From Planctomycetaceae bacterium (GTDB lineage: Bacteria > Planctomycetota > Planctomycetia > Pirellulales > UBA1268), in the NCBI GenBank assembly GCA_947453375.1, contig CANGGT010000001.1, positions 11,381 through 75,380 of the forward strand: DNA of 64,000 nucleotides, written 5' to 3'. Made by a program: the position numbers and the translations under genes. Position 1 is the first letter of the stretch, and each line of letters opens with the position of its first letter. Of this stretch, positions 1 to 30,895 are shown piece by piece. Under the pieces are notes generated by a model, which did not search any database, was not told the DNA's origin, and worked only from the letters and a program-made list of their open reading frames with translations.

Positions 1-683
1 GGGCGACTCGGACGGGGGAAGCGGGCGCGGAGATAGGCGGGGACGAGCGACGCGTAGCAGGCGGGCGCTCCGGGAAACGTCGGGGCGATGAGGCGCTCCG
101 GGAGGAATCGGCCCCGCGGCTCCGCCTCGATGGTGACGATTTTTTCGGCCGGGAGGGGAAGGGCCGCGAGGAGCCGACGGGCGTTCTCCGAGCAGGGCTT
201 GGGAACGAGGATCGTCGTCACCCCGTCGAGGTCGATCCCCGCCGCTTCGACGAGCGCCAGCCGAGCGAGGGCATCGAGGAGAAAATGGCAATAGTTGTCG
301 GAGGCGAAGTCGCTCAGCAGGCTGAGCGTCGTGCCGGGGAGGGGCGTCGCTTCGGTGTTGCAAAGCACATGATCCACGAACCGGGCGAAGCGCCCTTCGT
401 GGCAACCGGTCGCGTCGAAGCCGTGGCTGAACCACGTATGGTTGGCGAGGATGATTCCCTCGGCACCGATCAGCCAGCCCCACGGCCGGACGAGCGTAGC
501 GCCCTCGATCTCGAGGACGCCCAGTTCAGGGATGCGCGGCGCGAGAAACCTGCCGAAGTCGATCTGCAACGGCGTGCCCGGTCCGCCAGGAAGGGTTTTG
601 GGAATCGGCCAGTCGACCGTCATCGCGGGACGCGTCGGCCGCCACCGGGCTCCGAAGCGCCGCGCATAGTCGCCGCTGGCCAT
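1..683 (-). CDS. Glycosyltransferase, GT61/DUF563-like (partial; 3' end runs off the left window edge)
   Basis: My own translation of the minus strand from ATG 683-681 down to base 3 gives 227 codons with no stop (MASGDYARRFGARWRPT...WFSHGF...SDNYCHFLLDALARLALVEAAGIDL...PKPCSENARRLLAALP). It is a colinear paralogue of the GT61 module at 840-1973. It is absent from the ORF track because it has no stop inside the window. Confidence 0.75.
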   Translation of the reverse strand, partial: MASGDYARRFGARWRPTRPAMTVDWPIPKTLPGGPGTPLQIDFGRFLAPRIPELGVLEIEGATLVRPWGWLIGAEGIILANHTWFSHGFDATGCHEGRFARFVDHVLCNTEATPLPGTTLSLLSDFASDNYCHFLLDALARLALVEAAGIDLDGVTTILVPKPCSENARRLLAALPLPAEKIVTIEAEPRGRFLPERLIAPTFPGAPACYASLVPAYLRARFPRPSR

Positions 684-839
684 CCCCACGAGTCTGGGCA
701 CGACCGGGCTCCTCGACGGAGCGGCGGGTGGCGCCGGTGGGGTGGCTGGCGCTGGAGCGGGAGGCCGCCACCAATCGGCGAGCCTAGCGACGATCGCCCG
801 GGCCGCGGCGCGGAAGCTTCCTCGGGAATGCCGCACGCA

Positions 840-2531
840 TCAGCCCCCAGGGTGATCTCGAAGCACGTCCGCGAGCGCCCCGCGCAGGGCGTCAGGATCG
901 ACCCGAAAGGAGAACGGCCCGGGGCCGAGCCCGCTCGGCGGGTGATGCCCCGTGGCGCGGCACCGGCAGGGAAGGCAGGCCCAGTCGATCCCCATCCGGA
1001 CCGCGAGGGTGAAATAGTACGGACGGACATGGTCCATCGGCATGAACTCGAGGATCCGCGTGCCCGGCCGGCAGAAGACGAGGTTGGCAAGCCCTGCCCC
1101 ATGGGCCCCGACAACGACGCTTGCCGCAGCGAAGTCGGCGGGCTGGTCGTCGTGTTCGGCGGGGTTGTAGATGGAAAAGCCATGCTCCTCCATCAGCGCG
1201 ATCACCTCGGCACGATTCTCGAGGGTGCGACTCCCGTCCACCCGGTCGACATAGAGGCGGGTCGCCGGCGGCGTGGCCGGCGCTGCCCCGAGGACGTGCG
1301 ACCGGAGAAACTCGGCCGGCTCCGGGGCGTAGCAACAGGGCACGCCTGGATAGGTCGGCGCGAGGAGGCGCTCCGGCTGGAGCACCGCGACATCTCCCTC
1401 GTCGACCCAGACGATCTTCTCCGTCGGGATCGGAAGGGCGGCAAGGATCCGGCGGGCATTCTCCGAGCAGGGCTCGGGAACGAGGATTCTGTCGACGGCC
1501 GCCAGATCGATCCCCGCCGCCGCGACGAGCCCCAACCGACCGAGGGCATCGAGGAGGAAATGGGCGTAGTTGGTGGCGCCGAAGTCGGTGAGCAGGCTGA
1601 GGGTCGTGCCGGGAAGCGGCGACGTCGCGCGCTGGCTCGCTGCCCAAAGCCTTTCGAAATACGGCTTGTCGAGCTGTCGGGAAAACCAGGTGTGATCGCG
1701 GAGGAGGAGATCGTCGGCGCCGACGATCCATCCCCATGGCTCGACGAGCCTCGCCCCGTCGATCTCGATCACGCCAAGCGCCGGGATCCGGCTTTCGAGG
1801 AAGGCGCCGAAATCGATCTGCGCGGGGGTCTCCGGGCCGCCGGGATAGGTCAACGGCAGCGGCCACGCGATCGCTTCAGCGCCACGCGTCGGCCGCCAGA
1901 CGGCCCCGAACCGGGCAGCGTATTGCGCACTCCCGATCCCCACCGGACGGGCGGCCTCAGAGGAAGGCCTCATGGGGCGTTCCTGTCCGGCCCCCGCGTA
2001 GTCCCCACGATTCTCGTGCGGGAAGGGGACGTCGGGCACCGACTGCCCGAGGAACGCGCAGAGGAGATCCCACGACGGCGTCTCCTCCCAGCAGACTTCG
2101 AGGAGCCGGCCCGGCTTGTCGGCGAAGAAGGCGCGGACACGCTCGTTGTGAACGCGGTGGAGGTCGTCGATCGGCACGCCGGGGAGGAAGCGCTCGGCGA
2201 GTTGCCGGCCGAGTTCGATCCGCTCCGGGGGAATCGTCCGCATGTGGTTGTGGAAGCTCCGCCGCCAGGTGTCGTCGTCACGGCGGCGCGTGAGGACGAA
2301 GCGAGCGTCGGGATAGCGGGCGGCGAGGCGCTCGTAGAACCAAAACCAGGGGAAGTCTTCGAAGCTGTCGAAATCGCCGGTGGCGGCGATCACGGCGTCA
2401 GGGTCGCCGACGGCGGCCGGAACGAGGTCGTCGCGGATCGAGCAGTTGCGGTAGCCGAGCTCGCGGAAGCAACGCCCCAAGGTCTTCGTGCCCGACTTGG
2501 CGATCCCCACCCCGAACACCTTCGGCCGCAC
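840..2531 (-). CDS. Sulfotransferase-like domain fused to GT61/DUF563 glycosyltransferase
   Basis: This is the 3' 563 codons of track ORF 840..4193(-); the upstream part of that ORF is Arg-rich junk. The N-terminal ~185 aa carry a PAPS-loop-like KVFGVGIAKSGTKTLG. The C-terminal 377 aa are GT61-like (NYAHFLLDALGRL, VVGAHGAGLANLVF). No stop separates the modules. Start set at GTG 2531 (GGAGAG 10 nt upstream). An internal ATG at 1973 (AGGA upstream) could also initiate the GT61 part alone. Confidence 0.7.
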   Translation of the reverse strand: MRPKVFGVGIAKSGTKTLGRCFRELGYRNCSIRDDLVPAAVGDPDAVIAATGDFDSFEDFPWFWFYERLAARYPDARFVLTRRRDDDTWRRSFHNHMRTIPPERIELGRQLAERFLPGVPIDDLHRVHNERVRAFFADKPGRLLEVCWEETPSWDLLCAFLGQSVPDVPFPHENRGDYAGAGQERPMRPSSEAARPVGIGSAQYAARFGAVWRPTRGAEAIAWPLPLTYPGGPETPAQIDFGAFLESRIPALGVIEIDGARLVEPWGWIVGADDLLLRDHTWFSRQLDKPYFERLWAASQRATSPLPGTTLSLLTDFGATNYAHFLLDALGRLGLVAAAGIDLAAVDRILVPEPCSENARRILAALPIPTEKIVWVDEGDVAVLQPERLLAPTYPGVPCCYAPEPAEFLRSHVLGAAPATPPATRLYVDRVDGSRTLENRAEVIALMEEHGFSIYNPAEHDDQPADFAAASVVVGAHGAGLANLVFCRPGTRILEFMPMDHVRPYYFTLAVRMGIDWACLPCRCRATGHHPPSGLGPGPFSFRVDPDALRGALADVLRDHPGG

Positions 2532-2744
2532 GATGCCCCGGCTCTCCGATGACGCGCCAGATCCCGCGTCGGGACCGGCGCCGGAAAACAACCCAACGAG
2601 GGCTTTGAGGAACTGGAAGGACAAGAGAGCGGGCTCCGGCAGCGGGGGACGAGACCGGGAGGTATCCTGCGACACGACGAATCGCCATGATACCGCTGGC
2701 GGGCCAAGAGACTGCCGAGAGAAACCACACCCGGGAGTGGGCTG

Positions 2745-3374
2745 ATGCCGGCCAAGCGTCTGGTGATGATCATGGGCTTCCAGCGATCCGGGACGACGGC
2801 GCTGTTCGACACCCTCGCGTCGGCGCCGGGGGTTTCGCCGCGTCATGAGCATGCCGACGACGACCTCTACGACGACTACTTCCTCCGCCCCGAGCCCCAG
2901 ATCCGCCCGGTCCTCGCGGCCCTTCCCGGGACGGTGCTCCTCAAGCCGGTGCGGGAGAGCCGGCGCCGGTCCCCCCTCGAGGTTGCGGAGGAGTACCGCG
3001 ACTACGATCTCACCGTGATCTGGCTCTACCGCGATCCGGTGAATGTCTACCAGTCGTGGCTGGAGAAGCAGTGGGTGACCAACCCCGAGGGGATCGGCCA
3101 GCACTGGGTGTCGCGCAACAAGAAGTGCCTCGCTTCCCGGGCCGCCCTCGGCGACACGCTGCTCATCGTTCGCTACGAGGATCTCGTCGCCTCTCCGGCA
3201 TCTGTCACGGCGCTCGCCAGGCGCCTCGGACTCACGGTCGAGTCGACGCTCCGAGCCGATAGCAACGCCGGCCGCGCCCGTGTCGCGGCGATCGATCAAC
3301 AGGCAATTGACGCCGTGACCCGCGTGACGCTCGGGAGACTCGACGACGCCCGCTCGATCCGGCCGCCGGCGTGA
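2745..3374 (+). CDS. Sulfotransferase family protein
   Basis: 209-aa track ORF. It has an N-terminal P-loop of sulfotransferase type (LVMIMGFQRSGTTALF) and a later VRYEDLV block. Codon usage is GC3-rich. It is convergent with 3395-4351. Confidence 0.8.
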   Translation: MPAKRLVMIMGFQRSGTTALFDTLASAPGVSPRHEHADDDLYDDYFLRPEPQIRPVLAALPGTVLLKPVRESRRRSPLEVAEEYRDYDLTVIWLYRDPVNVYQSWLEKQWVTNPEGIGQHWVSRNKKCLASRAALGDTLLIVRYEDLVASPASVTALARRLGLTVESTLRADSNAGRARVAAIDQQAIDAVTRVTLGRLDDARSIRPPA

Positions 3375-3394
3375 TTGACTCGGGCAAGCAGGTG

Positions 3395-4351
3395 TCAGCC
3401 GGCGGGAGCCGGTGAGCCACCCTCCGGGCGACTGAGGAGGATGCTCGCGAGGACGACGAGGGGCTGCGGATCGACCCCGGCCGCGGCGAGGGGCGCAAGC
3501 GCCGCCCCCGCGCGGGCGAGGTGCGCTTCGATCCGCGCGGCGGCAGCGCCGCGCCCCGCGGCGGCCACGAGCGTGGGGCGGCCACTCGCCTCGTCGTCGC
3601 TCCAGGTTGCCGCCCGCTCGTCCTCGGCATCGTCGTCGAGATCGTCGCGAATCTGATAGGCGATCCCGACGGCCTCGCCGAAGGCCTCGAGCGCCAAAGC
3701 GAGCCCCGACGGCGCCGCCTGCCGGCAAGGGAGCCAGGCTGGCACCTCGGCGGCGAGCGCGAAGAGTCGGCCGCACTTGAGCCGCGCCACCTCCTCGGGA
3801 TCGACCTCCGCCCGGCCGAGGCTTCCCGCGAGATCGAGGAACTGCCCGAGATGGAGCGCGTCTTCGGTCTGTTGCTGAAGCGTCGCCACGCGGGCGGCGG
3901 CGCCGACGGGATCGACGGCGTGCGGTGCCGAACCGGCTTTGGCGGCGGCCCGGGCCAGCAGCGAGCGGGAGATCCCGAGCAGCCAGAGCGCTGCCTGGAT
4001 GGCGAGGGCCTCGTTGAAGCGCCGGTGCATCGCCGGTCGCCCGCGGCGCTTCTCGGCGTCGTCCATGCAGGGGAGATCGTCGACCGAGAGCGTGGCGCAG
4101 TGGAGCGCCTCGACGGCACACGCCGCCAGGAGACACGCCTCGGGGTCGGCCCCGACGACGCTCCCCGTCTCGAGGACGAGCACCGCCCGCCACCGGCTCG
4201 CCGGCGCCGTCGTCGATCCGTAGCGGATGGCATCCCGCAGCGGCGCGGGGATCGCAGCCGCATCGATCTCGGCGTCGAGTTGCTCGCGAACCTGCCGCCG
4301 CCAGGCGTCGATCCGGGTGCCGAGGGCATCGGAGGATGGAGGGATGGGCAT
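3395..4351 (-). CDS. trans-Polyprenyl diphosphate synthase (GGPP/FPP synthase family)
   Basis: 318-aa track ORF starting at ATG 4351. Both aspartate-rich motifs are present: DDLPCMDDAEKRRGRP (FARM) and YQIRDDLDD (SARM). Confidence 0.9.
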   Translation of the reverse strand: MPIPPSSDALGTRIDAWRRQVREQLDAEIDAAAIPAPLRDAIRYGSTTAPASRWRAVLVLETGSVVGADPEACLLAACAVEALHCATLSVDDLPCMDDAEKRRGRPAMHRRFNEALAIQAALWLLGISRSLLARAAAKAGSAPHAVDPVGAAARVATLQQQTEDALHLGQFLDLAGSLGRAEVDPEEVARLKCGRLFALAAEVPAWLPCRQAAPSGLALALEAFGEAVGIAYQIRDDLDDDAEDERAATWSDDEASGRPTLVAAAGRGAAAARIEAHLARAGAALAPLAAAGVDPQPLVVLASILLSRPEGGSPAPAG

Positions 4352-4563
4352 GGGCGAACCTGTGCGTGCCTTCGCCCTCGGGCTCCCTGGATGGGCGGAT
4401 CGTCAGATGGGCGGATCGTCAAAGGGCCTTTCGAGCGTTAGTCTACCGCCATCCGCCGCGCAGGAAGCCGCCCCGTATCGCCGCTCCCCCATCGGGATGG
4501 CTGGCTCGGCGGAGGCCCCGCCAGCATCGCGCCCCCGGTGTGCGGTGGTCAGAGGTCAACGCG

Positions 4564-5646
4564 ATGCCATCCGCGCCGAACGAAGCCGAACTTTCCCCTT
4601 CCATCCGCGCCGGCGTCGACTTCCTCGAGCGGAGCCAACTCCCTTCGGGGCAGTTTCCCGTCCAACGGACGCGGCGCAACCGCCCCGGCTGGCCGGTGGA
4701 AGAGGATCATTCGCCGTTCGCCACGGCGTATGTTCTCCACGCCGTGGCGTCGATCCCCCACCCCGCCGTGGCGGCAATGACGGCGCGGGGGGTCGAGTAT
4801 TTCCTCCGGGAGATGGACGGCCACGGCCTGTGGCGCTACTGGAACAAGGGATCGGTGCAGAGCGGACGGAAGGCCCATCCCTTCATCCCCGCCGATCTCG
4901 ACGACATGGCCTGCATCTCGGCGATGCTCCGGCGGGAGGGCATCTCGTTCCCCGACAACCGCCCCCTCATGCTCCACAACCGCGATCGCCACGGGCGCTT
5001 CTACACCTACCAGATCCTCCGCGCCGTCCCCACGCTCGATCCGGTCTACTGGTGGGCGATGCTCCGCGACCTCACCTGGCAGCGCTGGATCGTCTACTGG
5101 CGGTCGCAACCGACCACCTATGACGATGTCAGCGGCGTCGTCAACGCCAACGTGATCTGGTATCTGGGGAATCGTCCGGAAACACGAGGGGCCATCGACT
5201 GGCTGATCCGGGTCGTGGAGGCCGGCGCGGAGTCGGACTGCGACACCTATTACCACGACCCCTTTCCGCTCTGGCACGCGATCTCGCGTGGCTACGCCGC
5301 CGGCGTGACGCGCTTCGCGACGATCCGCGACACGATCCGCTCCCGGATCGAGTCCTATCTCCTCCCCAACGGCTCGATCGCGGCGCCCGACATGCACACG
5401 GCCCTGGCGATGTCGGCGCTCATGAACTTCGGCCTCGAATCTCCCTTCCTCCCCGCCGGCAGAGCGTGGCTCGAGGGAAAGCAGGCGACCGATGGTGGAT
5501 GGGATGCCTTTCCGATGTACTTCGGAGCGCGCCTCAAGCAAAACAGCTGGGCCTCCCGCGCCCTGACGACGGGCTTGTGCCTCGAGGCGATCCAGCGCCA
5601 CAGCGACCGGGCGCGACGAGCGACGGAGGTTGGTTCGTGCGCCTGA
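4564..5646 (+). CDS. Small class II terpene cyclase-like protein (alpha/alpha-toroid, prenyltransferase/squalene-cyclase repeat)
   Basis: Start moved to ATG 4564 inside track ORF 4336..5646, because the upstream 76 codons are Arg/Pro junk. DLDDMA at 4894-4911 resembles the DxDD(T)A protonation motif. A QW-type repeat KQATDGGW lies at 5479-5502. The product is 360 aa. Confidence 0.7.
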   Translation: MPSAPNEAELSPSIRAGVDFLERSQLPSGQFPVQRTRRNRPGWPVEEDHSPFATAYVLHAVASIPHPAVAAMTARGVEYFLREMDGHGLWRYWNKGSVQSGRKAHPFIPADLDDMACISAMLRREGISFPDNRPLMLHNRDRHGRFYTYQILRAVPTLDPVYWWAMLRDLTWQRWIVYWRSQPTTYDDVSGVVNANVIWYLGNRPETRGAIDWLIRVVEAGAESDCDTYYHDPFPLWHAISRGYAAGVTRFATIRDTIRSRIESYLLPNGSIAAPDMHTALAMSALMNFGLESPFLPAGRAWLEGKQATDGGWDAFPMYFGARLKQNSWASRALTTGLCLEAIQRHSDRARRATEVGSCA

Positions 5647-6689
5647 AGAGCATCCTCCGCGCTCACCGCTGGTGGGACACGCAACTCCCGGTGATGATGG
5701 CGCCGGTGTATCACGTCCTGGCGGAGGCCGAGCCGGCCCCTGCCGTGACGACAACGCTCGGCACCCTCCTCCTGTTCCTCGTCGCCTCGGTAGGGATCGC
5801 CGGCTTCGGCCATCTCTTCAACGATCTGTTCGACGTCGAGCAGGACGTGGAGAGCGGCGCGGCGAATCTCGTCGCCGGCCGCCGGCCGCTGCGCTTGGCG
5901 GCCACGTTCGTCGTCGTGCTCATCCTCGCCTGGGTGCCGTGGCTTTGGCTGCCGACGACCCCGGCGGTCTGGGCCCTCCTTGGCCTCGAGTTCGCCCTCT
6001 TCATCCTCTACAGCATGCCGGGATCGCGGCTCAAGGAGCGCGGCATCCTCGGACCGATCGCCGACGCCCTCTACTCCTGGACGATCTCGACGGCCGTGGC
6101 GCTCCTCGTCTTCGCCCGGCTCGGCGCCGTCTCGGTGCCGGCTTGGGCTTCGGCGCTCCTCGCCGCTTGGGCGTTCGTCCTCGGCCTGCGCCACATCCTC
6201 ACCCACCAGATCGAGGATGCCGGCCGGGATCAGGCAGCGGGGATGACGACCTTCGTGACGCGGCACGGTTGGCTGCCGACGTTTCAGATCCTCGAGCGCA
6301 TTCTCCTCCCGGTGGAGATGCTCCTCTTCCTGGCGATCCTCCTCGTGATCGGGATCGATGCCCCGATCGTGCCGATCGGTTTCCTCCTCTGGACGGGCCT
6401 CGTGGTGGCGCGCGAGCGGGATCGAGCGGTGGCGTGGCCTGCGACGGCGGCAGGCACACCGGCGATCCACCGGCTGTTCTTCCTCAACATCACGCTCCTC
6501 CAGCGCTTCTACACGCTCTGGTTTCCCCTCCTCACGCTCGTTCTCCTCGTCGTCCGGCATCCCACCTATCTCGGCCTCGCGATCCTCCACCTCGTCCTGT
6601 TCGAAAACGGCCTGGCGGTCTTCTTCCGCACCGATCTCCCCGACGTCCTCCGCCGGCTCCGCGCCGCCCCGCGACGAGGCTCGGCATGA
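5637..6689 (+). CDS. UbiA-family prenyltransferase (integral membrane)
   Basis: Lies within track ORF 5466..6689. Start set at GTG 5637 (GGAGG at 5625-5629), overlapping the stop of the previous gene by 10 nt. NDLFDVEQD (5820-5846) is the first Asp-rich motif and HQIEDAGRDQAAGMTT the second. There are multiple hydrophobic spans. Confidence 0.85.
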   Translation: MRLKSILRAHRWWDTQLPVMMAPVYHVLAEAEPAPAVTTTLGTLLLFLVASVGIAGFGHLFNDLFDVEQDVESGAANLVAGRRPLRLAATFVVVLILAWVPWLWLPTTPAVWALLGLEFALFILYSMPGSRLKERGILGPIADALYSWTISTAVALLVFARLGAVSVPAWASALLAAWAFVLGLRHILTHQIEDAGRDQAAGMTTFVTRHGWLPTFQILERILLPVEMLLFLAILLVIGIDAPIVPIGFLLWTGLVVARERDRAVAWPATAAGTPAIHRLFFLNITLLQRFYTLWFPLLTLVLLVVRHPTYLGLAILHLVLFENGLAVFFRTDLPDVLRRLRAAPRRGSA

Positions 6690-9241: not shown

Positions 9242-9255
9242 GAAGGGCTCGCGCG

Positions 9256-11658: not shown

Positions 11659-11662
11659 GGGA

Positions 11663-13553: not shown

Positions 13554-13712
13554 CAACGGGACCGTCGGGGAGAAATGGCTGCCGAAAGCGGACGACGATC
13601 GGGGCGGGATGCCTGGGTGCATTCTAGCCAGCGGAGACTGGGCACGGGATTACCCCTCGCGGTCGCTTATAAGATGGCTTGGCAAGCCTTCCTCCGAGCC
13701 TTCGGCCCCCCG

Positions 13713-14870
13713 ATGCCCGACTGCATTCTCCATTACGGCTTCCCCAAGACCGGCTCGACCGCCATCCAACGGGCGCTGTCGGAGCACTTGGCCGATCCCC
13801 GCTTCGTCTACTCCCACTTCCAGGGTCCGATCCACGACCACGGCAATCACAGCCGCGCCATGGCCACCGCCTTCAGCGACCGGCCGGAGGAGTACCACAC
13901 CCATGTGGCGGAGGGCCTTTCAGCCGAGATCCTTCTCCAGGAACGCGGCGCGTTGCTCGGCCGCCTCGACGACGAGATCACCGCCCTCGCCGGGAGAACC
14001 TTTCTCCTCTCCAGCGAGAGCCTGGGATTTCTCCGCGGAAGCGGCGTGCAGCGGCTCCGCACGTTTCTCGAAGAGCGCCATCTCGTTCCTCGGACCGTCG
14101 GCTACATCCGCCCCCGCCGGGAGTCCGTCGAGAGCTCGTTTGTCGAGAGACTCAAGCACCGTCAGGGGGCTTTCAACGAGGTCTTCAAGGGACTCGGTGA
14201 TGGCCCACGCTCGCAGATGGCAACCCTCGATAAGGTGTTCGGACGGGAAAACGTCCTTCTTTGGAAGTATGACCGGCGCTCGTTTCCTGACCGGTGTGTC
14301 GTGGCTGACTTCTGTCGACGCCTGGGGATCGACCGGCCTCCGGTCATCGATCGGGAGGCCAACCGCTCGCTCTCCCTGCCAGCCATCCGTCTGCTCTTTG
14401 CCTATCGACACGCCTTCCCCGCATCGCCGCCGGGCCGCCGATCAATCGAACAAAACGCCTCTCTCATCGCGGCCCTCGGCGAGATCGACGGGCCGAGGTT
14501 TCGCTTCCATCCCCTCCTTCTCGAACCGGTGATCCGCGAGCAGGAAATCCACCTCGACTGGCTCGAGACGCGTGTCGGGGCGACGCTCCGCGACGGCATG
14601 GACGACGACGGAGAACCGTCGATTCGCTGTGAGGAAGACCTCCTCGACTTCTCCCCGGAGTCGCTCGACTGGCTCGCCCGGCGCACCGGCCGCGCCGCCG
14701 GCAGCCTGGCCGGAAAGGATCCCCGTGCCGTGGCCGACGCCGTCGATCGGCTCCGGGAGATCGCCGTCGCCGAGCAGGTCGCTGCGCAGCGAAAGCCGGA
14801 CGGTCTCGTCGCCCGACTCGGGCACCGGAGCCGACAGCTCCTGGGCCACTTCGGGCGCCGGTCGCCATGA
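13713..14870 (+). CDS. Sulfotransferase-like P-loop protein (family assignment tentative)
   Basis: Track ORF 13575..14870. Start moved to ATG 13713, giving MPDCILHYGFPKTGSTAIQRAL (a PKTGST-type loop as in carbohydrate sulfotransferase-like families). The remainder has no motif I can name. The stop overlaps the next gene (ATGA at 14867). Confidence 0.6.
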   Translation: MPDCILHYGFPKTGSTAIQRALSEHLADPRFVYSHFQGPIHDHGNHSRAMATAFSDRPEEYHTHVAEGLSAEILLQERGALLGRLDDEITALAGRTFLLSSESLGFLRGSGVQRLRTFLEERHLVPRTVGYIRPRRESVESSFVERLKHRQGAFNEVFKGLGDGPRSQMATLDKVFGRENVLLWKYDRRSFPDRCVVADFCRRLGIDRPPVIDREANRSLSLPAIRLLFAYRHAFPASPPGRRSIEQNASLIAALGEIDGPRFRFHPLLLEPVIREQEIHLDWLETRVGATLRDGMDDDGEPSIRCEEDLLDFSPESLDWLARRTGRAAGSLAGKDPRAVADAVDRLREIAVAEQVAAQRKPDGLVARLGHRSRQLLGHFGRRSP

Positions 14871-16054
14871 AGATCCTGCTCGTCAACGACTACGGCGTGC
14901 CGGTGGGGGGCGCCGAGAACATCGTCCTCTCGCTCCGCGACGAACTGCGCCGCCGCGGGCACGAAGCTCGGTTGTTCGCCTCGACGGCGGCTATCGCCGG
15001 GCTCCCGAATCTCGCCGACACCACCTGCCACGGCACGACCGGCCCCCTGCGAACTCCCCTCCAGAGCGCCAACCCCTGGGCCGAGCGGGCCCTGGAGCGG
15101 ATCCTCGCCGACTTTCGCCCCGACGTCGTCCACGTCAATCTCTACCTCACGCAACTCTCGCCGCTGATCCTCCGCGCGCTCCACGGAACGCCGAGTGTCT
15201 ACTACGCGCAGTGGTACCGGGCGGTCTGCCCCCTCGGCACCCGCCGCCGCCCTGATGGAAAGTCCTGCGAGGCCAACGTCGGCGCCGCCTGCCTGCGGTC
15301 AGGATGCCTGTCGGCGCAGGCCTGGCCGTTCTTCATGTTCCAAGCGCACTGTGATCGGGCCTGGGGCGGAGTCTTCCACCGCGTTACGGCGATCAGCCAG
15401 GCCGTGGCGGAGAGCCTCGATACCTACGGCGCGCCCCACCTCCATGGCGCGACGGTCGTTCCCCCCGGCACCGCCGTGGTCGAGCCGCGGCAGGATTTCG
15501 CGGCTCTTCCCGGAATCGTCGCCGCCGGCCGGCTCGTGCCGGAGAAGGGGTTTGACGTTCTCCTGCGGGCCTTTCGGATCGTTGCCGCGCGGATCCCGCA
15601 GGCCCGGCTCGAGATCGTCGGCGACGGGCCGGAGGCAGCGCCTCTGGGCAGGCTCGCCGCCACCCTCGGCGTGGCCGACAAGGTGTCGTTCCCCGGCCAC
15701 CTCTCCCATGCCGACACGTTGATCCGGATGCGCGGGGCCTGGGTGACCTGCGTGCCGAGCGTGTGGGCCGAGCCGTTCGGCATGACGGCGGCCGAGGCGC
15801 AGATGCAGGGGGTGCCGGTGGTGGCCAGCCGCACCGGTGGACTGGGCGAGATTGTCCGTGACGGCATCACCGGTCGGGTCGTGGAGCCGGGCGACATCGA
15901 CGGCCTCGCGGCAGCCCTCCTCGGGATGCTCGCCGACCGGGAGACGGTCGCCTCGATGGGACGGGCGGCCCACGCCGACGCCCGGGAACGTTTCGACCTC
16001 CCCGGCTTCGCGGCCCGCTTCGAAGCGATCTACCGGGAGGTCGCCGCCAAATAG
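14867..16054 (+). CDS. GT4-family glycosyltransferase
   Basis: 395-aa track ORF. N-terminus MKILLVNDYGVPVGGAENIV. C-terminal block EPFGMTAAEAQMQGVPVVASRTGGLGEIV is typical of GT4/GT-B enzymes. Confidence 0.9.
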   Translation: MKILLVNDYGVPVGGAENIVLSLRDELRRRGHEARLFASTAAIAGLPNLADTTCHGTTGPLRTPLQSANPWAERALERILADFRPDVVHVNLYLTQLSPLILRALHGTPSVYYAQWYRAVCPLGTRRRPDGKSCEANVGAACLRSGCLSAQAWPFFMFQAHCDRAWGGVFHRVTAISQAVAESLDTYGAPHLHGATVVPPGTAVVEPRQDFAALPGIVAAGRLVPEKGFDVLLRAFRIVAARIPQARLEIVGDGPEAAPLGRLAATLGVADKVSFPGHLSHADTLIRMRGAWVTCVPSVWAEPFGMTAAEAQMQGVPVVASRTGGLGEIVRDGITGRVVEPGDIDGLAAALLGMLADRETVASMGRAAHADARERFDLPGFAARFEAIYREVAAK

Positions 16055-16896
16055 TCGGCGATCCCCTGCCGCCAATCGGGGAGGGTGATCCCGCGGCCCG
16101 CGAGCTTCGCGGTGTCGAGGATGCTGTAGGGGGGCCGGGCGACGGGGCTTGGATACTCCGCCGAGGTGATCGCCGTCACCACCGTCGGCAGCCCCGCCTG
16201 CTGAAAAAGCTCCGTGGCGAACTCGTGCCAGCAGGTGCCGCCGGCGTTCGTGGCGTGGAACGTCCCCGGCGTACCGTCTTCGAGCAACGCCACGATCGCC
16301 GCGGCAACGTGCGGCACGTAGCTCGGCGTGCAGAACTGATCGGCGACGACGCGCACTTCCGGCCGATCGCGGGCCAGGACGAGCATGGTGTCGGCGAAGT
16401 TCCGCCCGCGGACCGGCCCCGAATCCCCCGCCGAGTAGAGGCCGCAGGTGCGCACCACCTGATGCCGCTCCCAAGCCCTTGCCGCCACCTCGCCGGCGAG
16501 TTTGCTCGCACCGTATTCGCCGAGCGGGCCGGTAGCGTCGTCTTCGCCATAGGGGGACTTCCGCGCCGCATCGGCGCCGAAGACGTAGTCGCTGCTGACC
16601 TGAACGAGGAGGGCGTCGACGTCGCGGCAGGCCTCGGCGAGGGCTGCGACGGCATGGACGTTGGCGGCCCGGCAGGCAGCCGGCTCGGTCTCGGCCTTGT
16701 CGACGGCGGTCCAGGCCGCGCAGTTGATCACGGCGCGCGGACGGAGGCGGCCGATGACGGCGCGGACCGCCGCTGGATCGGCGATGTCGAGGCTGCTCCT
16801 AGGCAGCGCCGCGGCGTTGGGCCCGAGCAGGCGACACAGCGTCCTCCCCAGTTGGCCAGATGACCCGGTAACCGCGATCGTGCCCGTCGTCGACAT
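16030..16896 (-). CDS. rmlD: dTDP-4-dehydrorhamnose reductase
   Basis: 288-aa track ORF. It has the Rossmann motif VTGSSGQLG, the catalytic YGASK (YxxxK) and RmlD-like length. Confidence 0.9.
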
Positions 16897-17881
16897 GCGC
16901 TCTTTCCTCTGCCAATTCCTCGCCGGCGATCTGCACGAGGTAGCGGCCGTAGTCGTTGTTCATTTTCCGGCCGGCAGCCTCGAGGCCCTCCCGCGACAGC
17001 CAGCCCATCCGATAGCCGATCTCCTCCAGACAGGCGATCTTCAATCCCTGACGCTCCTGGATCGTCTGTACGAAGCCGGAGGCCTGCATGAGCGAATCGG
17101 GGGTGCCGGTGTCGAGCCAGGCAAAGCCGCGGCCGAGCGTCTCGACCCGCAGCGTCTTCTCTTCGAGGTAGAGGCGGTTGAGATCGGTGATCTCGAGCTC
17201 GCCCCGCGGGCTCGGCGCGAGCGCCGCGGCGAGGTCGCAGACCCGCGCATCGTAGAAATAGAGACCCGGCACGGCGTGATGGCTCTTCGGCTCCTTCGGC
17301 TTCTCCTCGAGCGACACCGCCCGCCCCGAAGCGTCGAACTCGACGACGCCGAACCGCTCCGGATCGCGGACGGGGTAGGCGAAGATCGTCGCCCCGTCGT
17401 CTCGGTCGGCCGCGCGGCGGAGGACGTCCTGGAAGCCGTGGCCGTAGAAGATGTTGTCGCCGAGGACGAGCGCGGCACGGGCTCCACCGAGGAACTCACG
17501 ACCGATGACGAACGCCTGGGCGAGCCCCTCCGGCCGCGGCTGCTCGGCGTAGGAGAGCGCCACGCCGAACGCGCTGCCGTCGCCGAGGAGGCGTTGGAAG
17601 TGGGGAAGGTCGTGCGGCGTCGAGATGAGGAGGATGTCGCGGATCCCGGCCAGCATCAGCGCCGAGAGCGGATAGTAGACCATCGGCTTGTCGTAGATCG
17701 GCAGGAGCTGCTTCGAGATCGCCAGCGTCATCGGGTTGAGCCGCGTCCCCGCTCCGCCGGCCAGCACGATCCCCTTCAGCGGACTGAGCGGCGGTTGGCT
17801 CGGCGGGCCGCCTGCGGATGACGGCTCGGTGCCGGCAAGGATGAGGCCGTGGTTCGACGCTGTGCCGCGCGGGGGGGACAT
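16799..17881 (-). CDS. rmlA: Glucose-1-phosphate thymidylyltransferase
   Basis: Lies inside track ORF 16799..18679(-); start set at ATG 17881. Motifs: [45 protein letters not shown]. The 3' end overlaps the rmlD start by 98 nt. The ~35-aa N-terminal leader is uncertain. Confidence 0.88.
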
Positions 17882-17937
17882 GGTGCAACCCTGGATGGGG
17901 AGGGAACGGGAGAGAGCCTCGAGGTCGGTCGGTAAGG

Positions 17938-18465
17938 TCAGGCACTCGCCCGGTGGGGAATGCCGCCGTCGATGCGGAACGGGGAGTTCTCGTCGCACTC
18001 GTGACGGATCTCGTCGACCTTCTCCTTCTTCCCCTGGCCGGCGTAGAGTCGGTTGGGGCCGTTGAATACCCAGCCCGGGATGGAGCTGGTGTTGCGGTAG
18101 GCGTGGACGACACCCGGCGGGATCGTCACGGCACAGGGATTCGACTGCCCGCAGATCGTGCGCGTGTGGAGGCCGTAGCTCGGCGACCCTTCGCGGGCGT
18201 CCCAGAGCAGCAGCTCGAAGTCGCCGGGGCCGATGAAGGCGAAGTAGTCGGTCTGATCGACATGCTCGTGCGGCCCGCGGGCCACGCCCGGCTGCGTCTG
18301 GCTCACGTAAGCCATCACCGGATGGAGTGCGGAGTCGAGGTCGTCCTCGCGGTAGATCTCCACGAGCCAGCCACGGGAGTCGGCGTGGCGGTTGAGCGCC
18401 TTGAAGGTGACGTCGGCGATCGCCGCGGGATCGGCGGAGGTGGTGCGGACGGAGAACGACGGCAT
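17938..18465 (-). CDS. rmlC: dTDP-4-dehydrorhamnose 3,5-epimerase-like cupin
   Basis: Track ORF 17938..18633(-), with start moved to ATG 18465. It has [11 protein letters not shown] and later HEH/cupin-like blocks, is 175 aa, and sits directly upstream of rmlA. Confidence 0.72.
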
Positions 18466-18734
18466 GCGATGTCTCGAATGGTTGGGGAAGAGGCCGGCGT
18501 GCCATCTCGAACAGGCCGGCGCGGCGTCGGGAATAGTCGATGCGGCCCACCGAAGCCAGAGCGGTTTCCGGCAGGAGCGGCCGGTGTGGTGACGGTGGGG
18601 GAGTGGCGAATCGGGGATGGCTGGGCAGGGCAAGAACCGGCCCCGGAGCCAATCGCGAAAAAGCTGGTCTGGAGCGCACCTGGCATTTCCGCCGATACAG
18701 GCGTCAGAAACGGACCATCCTCCGGCCTCCGCCC

Positions 18735-19916
18735 ATGTTCAACCGGCATCACACCTCGAGCGTCCGGCACCGTCACCGCCGCGGTGATCCTGGTTCACCG
18801 ACAGGGTCACCGCCCCGGATCTTCCTGGCGCGCGACTGGATCCATTTCCACGACGACGAGGCTCCTTCCGCGCCGCTGCGCCGCACCACGATTGGCCTTT
18901 TCCAGGAGGCCCGACCGCCGGCGCTCGGCACGATCGCTCCGGTACCGGACGGGGAGCCGCGGCCGACGTTCTCGGTGATGCTGCCAACCTACGAGCCGGA
19001 CCATCGCCTCGGTCGATCGCTCGAGGCGGTGCTCGCCCAGGCGCCCGGCCCGGAGGCGATGCAGATCGCCGTCGTCGATGACGGCTCGCGGCAGGTCGAT
19101 GTCCGGGCGCTCGTGCGCTCGTTCGATCCCGGCGGCCGCGTCGAGGTTCACCTCAATCAGCGCCGCGCCGGGCTCGCCGGCAATTGGAACCGTTGCCTGT
19201 CGCTCGCCCGGGGGAGGTTCGTCCATCTCCTCCACCAGGACGACCACGTCCTCCCCGGGTTCTACGACCGCCTCGAGCGCGGCTTCCGCACCGACCCGGG
19301 CATCGGGATGGCGTTTTGCCGCAGCCGAATCGTCGACGGCAACGATCGGCTCATCAAAACCGCGTCACGGCAGCAGTGGACCGCCGGCGTGCTCGCCGGA
19401 TGGCTGCCGAGGATCGCCGAGCGGCAGCGGGTGCAGACACCGGCCGCCGTGGTCGCCCGCAGCGTCTACGAGCAACTCGGGGGCTTTCGCACCGATCTGT
19501 GCCACGCGCTCGACTGGGAGATGTGGGTGCGGATCGCCGCCGCTGCCCCGGTGTGGTACGACCCGCGCGTCCTCGCCGTTTACCGTCGGCACCGGGGCAA
19601 CGAATCGCATCGCCTCCTCACGAGCGGGGCGGTGTGGCCCGACCTCCTCCAGGCGATCGAACTCAACGCCAGCCTCCTTCCGGCGGTCGATCGGGAACGG
19701 GTCAGGGAGCGGAGCGCGCGGTGGTATGCCGGCTCGGCCCTGAGGACGGTGGAGAAACAACTGGCGCGGGGCGACCTCGACGCCGCCGGTCGGACGCTCG
19801 ACCATCTCCCGGAGATGCTCCGCCTCCTCCCTGGCGGCGGCGACCGCAGCGCCCCGCTCCGCCGCGTCGGCAGACTCCAGGATCGACTGCGCACGGCCCG
19901 CCGACGGGCGGCCTGA
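18735..19916 (+). CDS. GT2-family glycosyltransferase
   Basis: Track ORF 18540..19916. Motifs: FSVMLPTYEPD, VVDDGS, HQDD, fitting a GT-A fold. The start is uncertain; ATG 18735 was chosen, and the first ~80 aa have poor coding character. Confidence 0.75.
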   Translation: MFNRHHTSSVRHRHRRGDPGSPTGSPPRIFLARDWIHFHDDEAPSAPLRRTTIGLFQEARPPALGTIAPVPDGEPRPTFSVMLPTYEPDHRLGRSLEAVLAQAPGPEAMQIAVVDDGSRQVDVRALVRSFDPGGRVEVHLNQRRAGLAGNWNRCLSLARGRFVHLLHQDDHVLPGFYDRLERGFRTDPGIGMAFCRSRIVDGNDRLIKTASRQQWTAGVLAGWLPRIAERQRVQTPAAVVARSVYEQLGGFRTDLCHALDWEMWVRIAAAAPVWYDPRVLAVYRRHRGNESHRLLTSGAVWPDLLQAIELNASLLPAVDRERVRERSARWYAGSALRTVEKQLARGDLDAAGRTLDHLPEMLRLLPGGGDRSAPLRRVGRLQDRLRTARRRAA

Positions 19917-19964
19917 TTTTCCCCTCTCCGTGCCGGCCCACCGCCCACCGCGAGCACGCCTGCC

Positions 19965-20849
19965 ATGCGCCGTGCGATCATCCTCGCGCACCACGATCCC
20001 GACGGGATCGTCGATCCGCATGTCGTTCACGCCCTCCGTGCCTACCGTGCGCTCGCGGCGCGGCTGGTGCTCGTCTCGACGTCGGTGGGCCGGCTCCCCG
20101 ACAACCTCGCGGGCACCGTCGACGCGTTCCTGCCGCGCGAGAACGTCGGCTACGACTTCGGCAGTTGGCAGGCCGGCCTTCGCACGCTCTCCCCGTCGGG
20201 TGATTTCGACGCGCCGGGCTTCGACGAGGTGGTGTGCCTCAATGACAGCGTTTATGGACCGCTGTTCGACGCGACGCCGATGTTCGCCGATCCCCGCGTC
20301 GGCGACGCCGATCTGTGGGGAATGGTGATCTCGAGGCAGCCCCCCCGCCACGGCGGTGGACTGCCACGGCCCCACCTCCAGTCGTGGTTCCTCGCTGCCC
20401 GACGAGCGTTGCTCGCGTCGTCGTGCTGGAGCGATTTTTGGAGCGGCGTCGTTCCCCAGCCGACGAAGGACGACGTCATCAGCCGCTACGAGGTCGGGCT
20501 ATCGGAGCGGGTCATGGCTGCCGGCTTCCGGATCGCCGCCCTCTACGACGCCGGCAGGGCACCGCACCCTGGGTGGCGCGACCTCCTGGCCGATCTCTCC
20601 CCGCTGCGGCCTTTTGCCTCCTGGCGGCTCCTGAGGAGAATTCGCCGGCCGTTCCACAACCCCGCCGAACTCCTCCCCCGTCGGCTGCTCGCCGCCGGGG
20701 TTCCCTACGCCAAGGTGTCGCTCCTCCGGGTCAATCACTACCGGCTCGCGCCGGAGGCGATCCGCGCGGCGATCCGGGGGACGGCGACGGGCTACGACCC
20801 GGGCCTCGTGGAACGCCACCAATCGCGGATCGCACGCCGGGACACCTGA
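19965..20849 (+). CDS. Rhamnan-synthesis protein F (RgpF)-like glycosyltransferase
   Basis: 294-aa track ORF. Family-typical blocks are ILAHHDPDGIVDPHV, VLVSTS, GYDFGSW, NDSVYGPLF, DLWG and HLQSWF. Confidence 0.75.
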   Translation: MRRAIILAHHDPDGIVDPHVVHALRAYRALAARLVLVSTSVGRLPDNLAGTVDAFLPRENVGYDFGSWQAGLRTLSPSGDFDAPGFDEVVCLNDSVYGPLFDATPMFADPRVGDADLWGMVISRQPPRHGGGLPRPHLQSWFLAARRALLASSCWSDFWSGVVPQPTKDDVISRYEVGLSERVMAAGFRIAALYDAGRAPHPGWRDLLADLSPLRPFASWRLLRRIRRPFHNPAELLPRRLLAAGVPYAKVSLLRVNHYRLAPEAIRAAIRGTATGYDPGLVERHQSRIARRDT

Positions 20850-23141: not shown

Positions 23142-23142
<1 letters not shown>

Positions 23143-30789: not shown

Positions 30790-30895
30790 TTTTTCTTTAC
30801 TGCTCGGCGAAAGGAACGACCTTTGCGGATTCACCGTCCTGCCGGAAGGTCGTCAGCGTTGACGGTCCTCTCTTTCCTTTCCAAGGTTTCTCTTC

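Follow-up and report, generated by a model that had tools for sequence, protein, structure and literature searches.

The first ~21 kb of the window, by which we mean the whole 64,000-nucleotide stretch of DNA that was analysed, are a composite of two separable units. Unit A is a strain-variable island that reaches from beyond the left edge to ~16054, and unit B is a rhamnose block (16030..20849) that contains rmlD, rmlA, an rmlC-like gene, a GT2 gene and an RgpF-like gene and has sucCD as a conserved neighbour. We put roughly even odds (about 0.5) on the reading that the locus makes a cyclic terpenoid lipid, decorates this lipid with sugars and sulfate and exports it, and that a separate rhamnose block adjoins the locus.

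The host is a freshwater planctomycete, an uncultured Pirellulales bacterium known from metagenomes only. Gene calling by GC3 frame analysis and codon usage gave 17 genes in region 1..20849, and domains were assigned with Pfam gathering scores and NCBIfam equivalog cut-offs. The left end of the island falls outside the window, and its genes within the window are:

1..839, minus strand: N-terminal part (279 aa) of a GT61/DUF563 protein whose gene runs past the left window edge
840..2531, minus strand: fusion of N-terminal Sulfotransfer_4 (PF17784, E 1.2e-27) and C-terminal GT61 (PF04577, E 6.6e-19), 563 aa
2745..3374, plus strand: sulfotransferase, 209 aa (Sulfotransfer_3, 48 bits, cut-off 27; Sulfotransfer_1, 24.3 bits, cut-off 22)
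3395..4351, minus strand: trans-polyprenyl diphosphate synthase, 318 aa (PF00348, E 2e-28)
4540..5646, plus strand: monodomain class II terpene cyclase (SHC-like) of an uncharacterised family, 368 aa (motif, profile and fold)
5637..6689, plus strand: UbiA-superfamily intramembrane prenyltransferase, 350 aa (PF01040, E 5e-13)
6686..9241, plus strand: tandem GT4, 851 aa (two Glycos_transf_1 stretches, E 1.4e-50)
9256..11658, minus strand: Wzt-P450 fusion, 800 aa (ABC_tran, E 5e-18; p450, E 9e-30)
11663..12535, minus strand: Wzm ABC-2 permease, ~290 aa (ABC2_membrane, 32.9 bits, cut-off 26.9)
12618..13553, minus strand: sulfotransferase, 311 aa (Sulfotransfer_3, 68 bits; Sulfotransfer_1, 40 bits)
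13674..14870, plus strand: sulfotransferase-like P-loop protein, 398 aa (sub-threshold Sulfotransfer_3, E 0.11)
14867..16054, plus strand: single GT4, 395 aa (Glycos_transf_1, E 8e-38; Glyco_transf_4, E 4e-16)

The rhamnose block consists of:

16030..16896, minus strand: RmlD, dTDP-4-dehydrorhamnose reductase (TIGR01214, 269 bits, cut-off 224)
16799..17881, minus strand: RmlA, glucose-1-phosphate thymidylyltransferase (TIGR01207, 472 bits, cut-off 361)
17938..18465, minus strand: divergent RmlC-like cupin (PF00908, dTDP_sugar_isom, 43.6 bits, cut-off 27; TIGR01221, 29 bits, cut-off 156)
18975..19916, plus strand: GT2 (Glycos_transf_2, E 3e-14; alternative start 18540)
19965..20849, plus strand: RgpF-like protein, 294 aa (PF05045, E 1.7e-26, profile positions 15-167 of 503)

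Nearly every item in the gene inventory that an earlier note had drawn up for the first ~21 kb was upheld by Pfam and NCBIfam. Its many glycosyltransferases (two GT61 modules, one GT2, the RgpF-like protein and three GT4 domains) were all confirmed, as was its Wzm/Wzt-type ABC-2 exporter. Pfam searches of all other called genes in the window, eight of which lack any Pfam match, likewise agreed that the window holds neither rmlB nor the PAPS-synthesis genes (APS kinase, ATP sulfurylase), and none of Wzx, Wzy, WaaL, Wza and Wzc. Two items stood in part: RmlA and RmlD score above their equivalog cut-offs, whereas the RmlC assignment is weak and far below that of TIGR01221, leaving a probable dTDP-sugar epimerase; and three of four reported sulfotransferase modules exceed Pfam gathering scores, while 13674..14870 is sulfotransferase-like but below threshold. 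We regard this protein as a probable fourth sulfotransferase. Its ortholog in the related locus L001 also gives a sub-threshold Sulfotransfer_3 match (E 0.005), the profile of its family (2559 members) matches the solved sulfotransferase 3rnl (E 1.5e-5), and its PKTGST motif is of the 5'-PSB type, not a Walker A; Foldseek matches of its AF2 model (pLDDT 91) are weak (E ~2e-3) and mix sulfotransferases with NMP-kinase folds. The sulfotransferase-GT61 fusion carries a 5'-PSB-type motif (GIAKSGTKTL) and is 81% identical to its L001 ortholog, and the 209-aa and 311-aa enzymes show RSGTT and RDP, and RAGTT and REP, respectively. The product may be heavily sulfated. The 1..839 protein has no Pfam match of its own because the GT61 domain begins near residue 199, and it is 72% identical to a 441-aa GT61 of L001 (Pfam GT61, E 1.9e-20).

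We then compared the region with related loci. Four relatives (L090, L091, L094 and L096), whose SucC and RmlA are 95-97% and 85-95% identical to those of the window, keep rmlD-rmlA-rmlC-GT2-RgpF-sucCD, with RmlD, the first gene of the block, at 88-95% identity. No island gene was found in the 2.6-6 kb visible to the left of rmlD in these four relatives, the place being taken by unrelated genes for a TPR protein, a MIP channel and an FAD oxidase. Conversely, there are no rml genes within 22 kb of the island in its carriers L001-L005, and the tailoring genes of these islands differ from those of the window, L001 having instead a pyruvyl-transferase-GT61 fusion and a DUF6473-GT4. The GT2 and RgpF genes are conserved together in L089-L101, and in the window the RgpF-like gene is followed by sucC, at 20979. 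The earlier note had read the 21 kb as one supercluster for a sulfated, rhamnose-containing product, a claim that is not supported by this comparison, in which the rml block is kept without the island and the island without rml. Of the clustering that it expected in relatives, the rml part fails; the terpenoid core and the sulfotransferase and GT61 genes do stay together in L001, L004, L010 and L013.

These data bear on a model, along the lines of that note, of a single ABC-transporter polysaccharide locus, in which all glycosyltransferases of 1..20849 would build a sulfated rhamnan-like polymer on undecaprenyl phosphate for export by Wzm/Wzt, the terpenoid genes merely supplying or modifying the carrier. 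We consider this model unlikely. In its favour are the genuine RmlA and RmlD, the RgpF-like and GT2 genes and the total of at least seven GT domains, but close relatives keep rml-GT2-RgpF in the absence of the island, and other relatives have the island without rml. We propose that unit B produces dTDP-rhamnose and, independently of unit A, a glycan that contains rhamnose; a supply of rhamnose from unit B to the unit A product is possible but not required. With its rml genes, GT2 and RgpF-like protein, unit B resembles the streptococcal rgp rhamnan locus (rmlD, rgpA-F and the RgpC/D ABC transporter). It differs in that its RgpF match is limited to the N-terminal third of the rhamnan-synthesis protein F model, in its divergent rmlC-like gene, in containing no transporter and in its planctomycete host.

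The terpenoid trio of cyclase, UbiA-family enzyme and polyprenyl synthase is the conserved heart of the locus and no bystander. We assign the cyclase on the basis of a P-x-D-x-D-D motif that is invariant in its family (40 homologues), family-profile matches to SHC (1.4e-14), drimenol synthase (7e-13) and MstE (3e-4), an AF2 model with pLDDT 93, and the best Foldseek matches of that model, which are class II cyclase domains and the monodomain cyclases 6ij1, 8pak and 6sbb. We know of no role for a DxDD cyclase in making undecaprenyl phosphate, which further argues against the single-polysaccharide model. Cyclase, UbiA and tandem GT4 are translationally coupled: UbiA begins 10 nt inside the end of the cyclase gene, and the tandem GT4 begins 4 nt inside the end of UbiA. 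The polyprenyl synthase falls under every NCBIfam equivalog cut-off; it carries the motifs DDLPCMDD and DDLDD, has A and T as small residues in positions -5 and -4, and is predicted to make C20 or longer chains. It is found in L009-L011 (92% relatives) and is absent from L001, L004 and L013.

The UbiA-family protein has NDLFDVEQD and EDAGRD motifs and eight hydrophobic segments. Its family profile best matches chlorophyll synthase (1.8e-9), followed by DGGGP synthase (8e-7) and the mycobacterial DPPR synthase 8j8j (3.5e-3), with no aromatic C-prenyltransferase structure at E <= 10, and these nearest solved relatives tentatively suggest an O-linkage. The DPPR synthase match could instead indicate a polyprenyl-phosphate phosphoribosyltransferase (DPPR/PPPRS type) that supplies a lipid-linked pentofuranose donor for periplasmic glycan decoration, much as three-component systems do in Citrobacter and mycobacteria, with the SHC-like protein non-catalytic or unrelated; UbiA-family PPPRS enzymes are indeed found in ABC-transporter-dependent O-antigen loci (PMC11127046). 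We find this very improbable, since that match is weaker than those to chlorophyll and DGGGP synthases, Pfam detected no GT-C glycosyltransferase, small flippase or phosphatase in the locus, and the invariant DxDD and the linkage of cyclase to UbiA in 43 of 47 loci favour a catalytic cyclase in the same pathway.

That linkage comes from a synteny survey (phmmer, E <= 1e-5) of 47 cyclase-homologue loci with full 10-kb flanks from many phyla. Besides UbiA (43/47), GT4 (41/47), a Wzt-like NBD (28/47), P450 (22/47) and Wzm (17/47) occurred within 10 kb of the cyclase homologue; the count of 28 overstates Wzt, because NBDs in some Bacteroidota loci match MsbA-type exporters rather than ABC-2. The typical order is Wzm-P450-Wzt-cyclase...UbiA-GT4-GT2, and carriers include Pyrinomonadaceae, Hymenobacter, Fibrella, Gemmatimonadales, a Spartobacteria MAG and an actinomycete MAG. 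The tandem GT4 is kept beside UbiA in L001, L004, L006, L010, L013 and L085. Moreover, cyclase-UbiA-GT4 with ABC-2 and P450 is seen in phyla without rml, GT61 or RgpF genes, a further point against a single polysaccharide locus.

A quite unlikely alternative is that three independent systems with unrelated products are neighbours by chance: a cluster for a terpenoid natural product, one for a sulfated glycan and its ABC-2 exporter, and the rhamnose block. Such a view would fit the demonstrable independence of unit B, a polyprenyl synthase present in some relatives only and tailoring genes that vary among relatives, as in L001. It is at odds with the 4-nt UbiA/GT4 overlap, with the immediate proximity of Wzm, P450 and Wzt to the cyclase in several phyla, and with the sulfotransferase and GT61 genes that flank the terpenoid core on both sides and are retained in L001, L004, L010 and L013, the 209-aa sulfotransferase beside the cyclase in all four. 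Nor does it fit the sulfotransferase gene that comes immediately after the cyclase in Acidobacteriota, Gemmatimonadota and Armatimonadota, three other phyla. Of 80 loci, 24 show this arrangement, with Pfam confirmation of the sulfotransferase in L047 and L021; in L008 the order is P450-cyclase-ST-polyprenyl synthase-UbiA-GT4-GT2-GT4. The single GT4 is the final gene of the island, overlaps the preceding stop by 4 nt and is 76% identical to its L001 ortholog.

The exporter comprises a Wzm permease with five strongly hydrophobic segments and a Wzt that consists of an ATPase (~aa 1-250), a beta-rich middle domain (~aa 280-400) and a P450 (~aa 420-800). The P450 part retains FGLGIHSCPG (an intact haem-binding motif), AGYETT and EEMLR and is nearest to PikC and other CYP107-type enzymes. 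The best solved relatives of the NBD are TarH/TagH, Aquifex Wzt and mycobacterial RfbE (E 1e-38 to 1e-31), all of which export polyprenyl-PP-linked polymers, and the middle domain sits where a carbohydrate-binding module would lie, though its Wzt_C match (E 0.07) is under threshold; both observations favour the single-polysaccharide model. Against it, Pfam detected no priming phosphoglycosyltransferase, chain terminator or outer-membrane export protein in the window. Priming transferases are frequently encoded away from the glycan locus, so that their absence is weak evidence. The locus thus resembles known Wzm/Wzt exporters (O-antigen Wzm-Wzt, TarGH/TagGH for teichoic acid, mycobacterial RfbD/RfbE for galactan) in its ABC-2 permease and related NBD, and Wzt proteins with a carbohydrate-binding module in its extra domain after the NBD. 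It differs in the sub-threshold middle domain, in having no priming transferase or terminator and in the complete, haem-competent P450 at the Wzt C-terminus, which in cyclase loci of other phyla is a separate gene between wzm and wzt. The fusion is present in nine metagenomic protein clusters, and our literature search found no report of a P450 fused to Wzt.

Under the cyclic terpenoid lipid reading, the core of unit A (cyclase, UbiA, tandem GT4, Wzm/Wzt and P450, here also a polyprenyl synthase for C20 or longer chains) would make a glycosylated cyclic terpenoid lipid at the cytoplasmic membrane face. The data show the domain identities, the fold and motif of the cyclase, the synteny and the separability of the two units; the sequence of the steps, what UbiA uses as acceptor, where sulfate is placed and what kind and length of glycan is made are inferred. 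UbiA would join the prenyl chain to a polar acceptor, the cyclase would cyclise it by protonation via the DxDD aspartates, and the P450 would introduce a hydroxyl group. GT4 and GT61 enzymes would then add sugars, three or four PAPS-dependent sulfotransferases would add sulfate, probably including on the terpenoid or its first sugars, and Wzm/Wzt would move the amphiphile out of the inner leaflet. The at least seven GT domains and the Wzt-type exporter are no less compatible with a long polysaccharide than with a small glycolipid.

Several known systems share parts of this arrangement. In the merosterolic acid pathway of Scytonema, a ~350-370-aa single-beta-domain cyclase is likewise partnered by a UbiA-family prenyltransferase and, for GGPP supply, a C20-type polyprenyl synthase, and structures of its cyclase, MstE, are among the Foldseek and profile matches of the window cyclase. 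MstE is only ~15% identical, however, and uses DxD where the window family retains the canonical DxDD; the window locus has no aromatic-acceptor genes, its UbiA profile is nearer O-prenylating members, and beyond the shared parts it encodes an ABC-2 exporter, a P450, glycosyltransferases and sulfotransferases. Mycobacterium tuberculosis makes sulfomenaquinone with Cyp128, which hydroxylates the polyprenyl tail, and Stf3, which sulfates it, a pairing of P450 and PAPS-dependent sulfotransferase on an isoprenoid lipid that may be comparable in role, although that pathway is not known to involve a cyclase, glycosylation or a dedicated exporter. P450 and sulfotransferase are adjacent in the window and a single protein in L004, L005 and L013, where the 311-aa sulfotransferase is fused directly to the P450; wzm and the wzt NBD are missing there, and the fusion may thus have been left behind by a deletion and not signal a functional link. 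The loci for brasilicardin and phenalinolactone, bacterial terpene glycosides, likewise cluster a polyprenyl synthase, class II cyclase, P450s and deoxysugar glycosyltransferases. Their cyclases are two-domain epoxy-polyprenyl enzymes, unlike the monodomain cyclase here, and they are not known to have a UbiA-coupled tandem GT4, sulfotransferases or Wzm/Wzt. To our knowledge such loci are confined to actinomycetes, whereas the core described here occurs in many phyla.

A survey of cyclase phylogeny notes that Planctomycetes, Bacteroidota and Acidobacteriota have monodomain homologues that are uncharacterised (PMC12324236), and our literature search did not find the cyclase-UbiA-GT4 module described. 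The core module is present in many bacterial phyla and uncharacterised. Since no part of the locus other than cyclase-UbiA-GT4 with ABC-2 and P450 is conserved between phyla, the lipid that carries the glycan is probably a dedicated cyclic terpenoid, not undecaprenyl phosphate.

Because the window is ~70% G+C and its raw ORF lists were mostly spurious frames, genes were called with a GC3 frame plot and a codon-usage gene caller, which gave 17 genes in 1..20849. Searches against Pfam and NCBIfam verified nearly all the items that an earlier note had read from this segment, and its gene inventory can be taken as confirmed.

Genes of 1..20849 and the adjoining sucC
3..839 (-), GT61, partial ORF; 72% identity to the N-terminus of a 441-aa GT61 on a related contig, zero Pfam matches
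840..2531 (-), Sulfotransfer_4-GT61 fusion (Pfam/NCBIfam)
2745..3374 (+), sulfotransferase (Pfam)
3395..4351 (-), polyprenyl synthase (Pfam)
4540..5646 (+), squalene-hopene-cyclase-like protein (weak match)
5637..6689 (+), UbiA (PF01040)
6686..9241 (+), tandem GT4
9256..11658 (-), ABC-ATPase-P450 fusion, 800 aa
11663..12535 (-), ABC-2 permease (Wzm)
12618..13553 (-), sulfotransferase, 311 aa (Pfam)
13674..14870, sulfotransferase-like module (sub-threshold Pfam)
14867..16054 (+), GT4
16030..18465 (-), RmlD, RmlA, RmlC-like
18975..19916 (+), GT2
19965..20849 (+), RgpF-like protein
20979..22172, sucC, followed by sucD and then a LutA-like CCG protein

Among the called genes of the window, Pfam gave no match for rmlB, APS kinase, ATP sulfurylase, Wzx, Wzy, WaaL, Wza or Wzc, and eight genes had no Pfam match at all. 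The remaining called genes include the planctomycete hallmark families YTV, PSCyt1, PSCyt2, PSD1 and DUF1501 (Pfam), and the closest genomes are freshwater Pirellulales MAGs. Genes for lactate utilisation stand in two places, with the LutA-like CCG gene (23142..23858) apart from lutB (28274..29773) and lutC (29770..30534); the genes in between are on the opposite strand and comprise a GT2 (23871..24779), a 459-aa protein with zero Pfam matches (24983..26362) and a T2SSE-type secretion ATPase (26374..28017). Coding signal is weak in 30500-33400, immediately upstream of a YTV-repeat protein (33474..35081), and the window's G+C minimum also falls here (0.654 in 30001-32000). A 1324-aa ORF at 39239-43213 (-) has a strong coding signal and no Pfam match at E <= 0.001. 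The sole anion transporter of the window is a three-gene ABC importer at 52699-55378 (SBP_bac_11 binding protein, one permease, and an ATPase with a TOBE domain), which looks like a molybdate (ModABC) rather than a sulfate uptake system and has no obvious tie to sulfation.

One of the terpenoid genes encodes the 368-aa cyclase-like protein. The DxDD motif is the catalytic signature of class II cyclases, and the protein carries it as IPADLDDMA at residues 116-124; in an alignment of 40 homologues (36-83% identity), P117, D119, D121 and D122 were invariant, giving P-x-D-x-D-D within IPADLDDxA. Its AlphaFold2 model was confident (pLDDT 93, pTM 0.92) and, by Foldseek, showed a single domain of ~350 aa with the (alpha/alpha)6-barrel beta-domain fold, matching the class II domain of drimenol synthase (E 8e-14) and the monodomain cyclases 6ij1, 8pak, 8paj and MstE (E 1e-8 to 1e-10). 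A PDB search from the single sequence returned noise-level matches only; the family profile was required, and it recovered squalene-hopene cyclase (1.4e-14), drimenol synthase (7e-13) and the same monodomain proteins 8pak, 8paj, 6ij1 and MstE. The protein is thus a predicted monodomain class II terpene cyclase. A survey of cyclase phylogeny describes a clade of uncharacterised beta-only homologues across many phyla, of which MstE is the only studied member; MstE has a DxD motif (PMC12324236), whereas the family found here has DxDD.

The cyclase, UbiA and tandem GT4 genes overlap in succession, each start preceding the stop of the gene before it. We collected 80 genomic loci with cyclase homologues and searched their six-frame ORFs with the window proteins; stop-to-stop ORF clustering of these neighbourhoods was noisy in high-GC loci owing to antisense shadow ORFs, which were filtered. 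Full 10-kb flanks were available for 47 loci, and among these UbiA was present in 43, GT4 in 41, a Wzt-like ATPase domain (NBD) in 28, P450 in 22 and Wzm in 17, while a polyprenyl synthase was found in only 3. Since a genome holds only a handful of UbiA-family genes, we estimate that by chance no more than a few per cent of loci would have one within 10 kb. The order Wzm-P450-Wzt-cyclase...UbiA-GT4-GT2 recurs in Pyrinomonadaceae, Hymenobacter, Fibrella, Gemmatimonadales, a Spartobacteria MAG and an actinomycete MAG, and one Pyrinomonadaceae locus reads P450-cyclase-sulfotransferase-polyprenyl synthase-UbiA-GT4-GT2-GT4. PhyH-type oxygenases, GT2 and an asparagine-synthase-like gene are also repeated near the cyclase, some Bacteroidota loci have an MsbA-type exporter in place of ABC-2, and GT61 and rml genes were seen solely in Pirellulales relatives. 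Judged by these neighbourhoods, the terpenoid genes form the conserved core of the locus; we found no description of the combination in the literature, of which our coverage is incomplete and does not prove absence.

Two distant loci (L006:3077-5161 and L007:17600-21062) place the cyclase among B12-binding radical SAM enzymes and several PhyH dioxygenases, which hints at further modification of the lipid tail there. Two MAG contigs labelled 'uncultured cyanobacterium' (L013, CAIJRN010000019.1) and 'uncultured Gemmatimonadetes' (L012, CAIUOO010000230.1) have an island or cyclase of Pirellulales type (82-87% protein identity), and these labels look like mis-binning or contamination.

The UbiA protein has the superfamily's features, with NDLFDVEQD at 62-70, EDAGRD at 193-198, eight hydrophobic segments and a PF01040 score of 49 bits against a cut-off of 34, and it fell far under the cut-off of every NCBIfam equivalog. 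Its family profile lay nearest chlorophyll synthase (1.8e-9) and DGGGP synthase (8e-7), then DPPR synthase (3.5e-3), and matched no aromatic C-prenyltransferase structure at E <= 10; because of this order and the lack of such matches, the profile hints at O-prenylation. The established chain-length rule for polyprenyl synthases holds that residues ahead of the first Asp-rich motif predict product length, and the small residues at -5 and -4 of the synthase at 3395..4351 thus predict a product of C20 or longer. As an alternative, UbiA could act as a polyprenyl-phosphate phosphoribosyltransferase (PPPRS), as in the three-component periplasmic pentofuranose modification system, which joins a PPPRS-type UbiA with a flippase and a GT-C glycosyltransferase (PMC11127046). 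The DPPR synthase match would fit that role, but it is weak, and Pfam found neither a GT-C nor a small flippase in the locus.

The ABC-2 permease and a Wzt/TagH-type NBD make up a Wzm/Wzt-type pair, the NBD being nearest TarH/TagH, Aquifex Wzt and mycobacterial RfbE. The beta-rich domain that follows the NBD scored 13.5 bits against Wzt_C (E 0.07; cut-off 30.4). To our knowledge, transporters of this type are known only for polyprenyl-diphosphate-linked polymers, and a classical undecaprenyl-linked sulfated rhamnan is a rival to a terpenoid cargo. No Pfam family of a WecA/WbaP-type priming transferase or of a chain terminator/adaptor was present among the called genes of the window; such genes may lie elsewhere in the genome.

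The P450 half of the fusion is complete, with the haem-thiolate motif FGLGIHSCPG, the ExxR motif EEMLR and the I-helix motif AGYETT, and it belongs to a CYP107-like group (PikC, E 8e-68). A match to TIGR04515 raised the possibility of a haem-less 'P450-derived glycosyltransferase activator', which we rejected because the cysteine ligand motif is intact. The Wzt-P450 fusion was found in nine protein clusters (69-95% identity), all metagenomic, with no exact match to the window's protein and the nearest relative 95% identical, and we know of no description of it in the literature, although our coverage is incomplete and absence is not proven. In a sister lineage (L004:10001-12121, L005:6361-8481, L013:11567-13749; protein clusters P0010 and P0011), this P450 forms an in-frame fusion with the 311-aa sulfotransferase, and neither wzm nor the wzt NBD is present, so that the island may work there without its own ABC-2 exporter. 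In Hymenobacter mellowenesis (L071:6388-8691), the P450 beside Wzm/Wzt and an N-terminal, FabD/PKS-AT-like Acyl_transf_1 domain lie together in a single stop-to-stop ORF, which suggests an acyltransferase-P450 fusion in Bacteroidota loci and perhaps acylation of the product. P450 ORFs of similar size (2.2-2.4 kb) occur in L018, L057, L067, L068, L078 and L085, the Pfam domain check being of L071 only.

For sulfation, a model match above threshold together with 5'-PSB and 3'-PB motifs was found in the N-terminal domain of 840..2531, in 2745..3374 and in 12618..13553. The module at 13674..14870 fell under the Pfam threshold (E 0.11), while its family profile matched the solved sulfotransferase 3rnl (E 1.5e-5) and its PKTGST fits the 5'-phosphosulfate-binding (5'-PSB) type of PAPS enzymes, not Walker A. 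Its AlphaFold model was confident, with weak Foldseek matches to a mix of sulfotransferases and NMP-kinase (P-loop kinase) folds; it is probably a fourth sulfotransferase. Pfam has no model for the large family of this 360-aa domain (2559 representatives at E <= 0.001; homologues include P0242, P0244, P0309 and P0363); in some members the domain is repeated in tandem three to five times, with lengths of up to 1541 aa. By an iterated sulfotransferase profile, 24 of the 80 loci, belonging to Acidobacteriota, Gemmatimonadota, Armatimonadota and Pirellulales, have a sulfotransferase as the next gene downstream of the cyclase; Pfam verified two of these. In a Gemmatimonadales MAG, a CysD-like PAPS_reduct gene (L047:18116-19288; E 8e-46) sits at a distance of ~7 kb from the cyclase and its sulfotransferase; in Gemmatimonadota, a gene for sulfate activation may move together with the locus. 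The same CysD-like ORF family occurs in L031 and L046.

The earlier note had proposed a single ~21-kb cluster for a sulfated, rhamnose-containing glycoconjugate exported by an ABC-2 system. Sulfation, glycosylation and ABC-2 export were retained, but the single cluster and the rhamnose-containing product were not, as the units are separable in relatives. The four-enzyme dTDP-L-rhamnose set (RmlABCD) was incomplete: RmlA and RmlD scored above equivalog cut-offs, the RmlC-like protein reached 29 bits against 156, and RmlB was absent among the window's called genes. The rmlA and rmlD calls overlap by an unusually long 98 nt on the same strand (16799-16896) and the RmlA C-terminal tail is unusually long; either the end called for rmlA or the beginning called for rmlD may be wrong.

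Scanning metagenomes with the RgpF-like protein brought up very close relatives (SucC 95-98%, RmlA 85-95% and RmlD 88-95% identical), and in four of them (L090, L091, L094, L096) rmlD-rmlA-rmlC-GT2-RgpF-sucC-sucD is intact. No island genes occur within the 2.6-6 kb left of rmlD in these loci, where a TPR protein, a MIP channel, an FAD oxidase or a GDP_Man_Dehyd-family dehydratase is encoded. This dehydratase, ~1.5-4.5 kb left of rmlD in L096 and L094, is probably rmlB. Conversely, no rml genes occur in 22 kb of five island-bearing contigs (L001-L005; island proteins 69-90% identical), which past the shared GT4 hold differing tailoring genes, a pyruvyl-transferase-GT61 fusion and DUF6473-GT4. 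Because the rml block is intact in relatives that lack island genes beside it, and island contigs lack rml, 1..16054 is an island that varies between strains, and 16030..20849 is conserved beside sucCD. We dropped a model of island insertion between TPR and rmlD genes: it drew on a TPR gene after GT61 in L001 and before rmlD in L090 and L096, and the two TPR proteins are not homologous. Island and block join at a convergent 25-nt overlap. On a rival view, the terpenoid, sulfated-glycan and rhamnose genes could be unrelated clusters that happen to be neighbours. Transferases of the island may draw on the rhamnose block, and rhamnose would then be a possible part of the sulfated product.

Taken together, the comparisons are best explained by an island that would make and export a sulfated, glycosylated cyclic terpenoid lipid, beside an independent rhamnose-glycan block. 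A broader reading, to which we give a probability of roughly 0.3, is that cyclase-UbiA-GT4 with Wzm/Wzt and P450 constitutes a previously undescribed pathway for envelope-exported cyclic-terpenoid glycolipids in Planctomycetota, Acidobacteriota, Bacteroidota, Gemmatimonadota, Armatimonadota, Verrucomicrobiota and other phyla. In this tentative scheme, the glycan that a Wzm/Wzt-type transporter exports would have a dedicated cyclised terpenoid as its anchor; the P450, which is always the transporter's neighbour and in this lineage its fusion partner, would couple lipid oxidation to export, and lipid sulfation would also be coupled to export in several phyla. In widespread bacteria of soil and fresh water, these lipids could be membrane components resembling hopanoids or sterols.

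The cyclase family has no Pfam family, and its 246 detectable homologues, from many soil and freshwater phyla, are nearly all unannotated, carried as hypothetical proteins. Several cultured organisms are among the carriers (Hymenobacter, Fibrella, Pedobacter gandavensis, Flavobacterium kayseriense and Wocania ichthyoenteri), and the idea is therefore directly testable. A practical lesson is that rhamnose genes should not be assumed to share the island's product. If the model holds, more than 200 monodomain class II terpene cyclases would mark a new class of bacterial terpenoid glycolipids with its own export system, bearing on the cyclic envelope lipids of bacteria besides hopanoids and sterols, on the cargo range of Wzm/Wzt and on the source of cyclic terpane biomarkers, and the multiply sulfated variant in this window would give a planctomycete an unusual sulfated lipid in its envelope.
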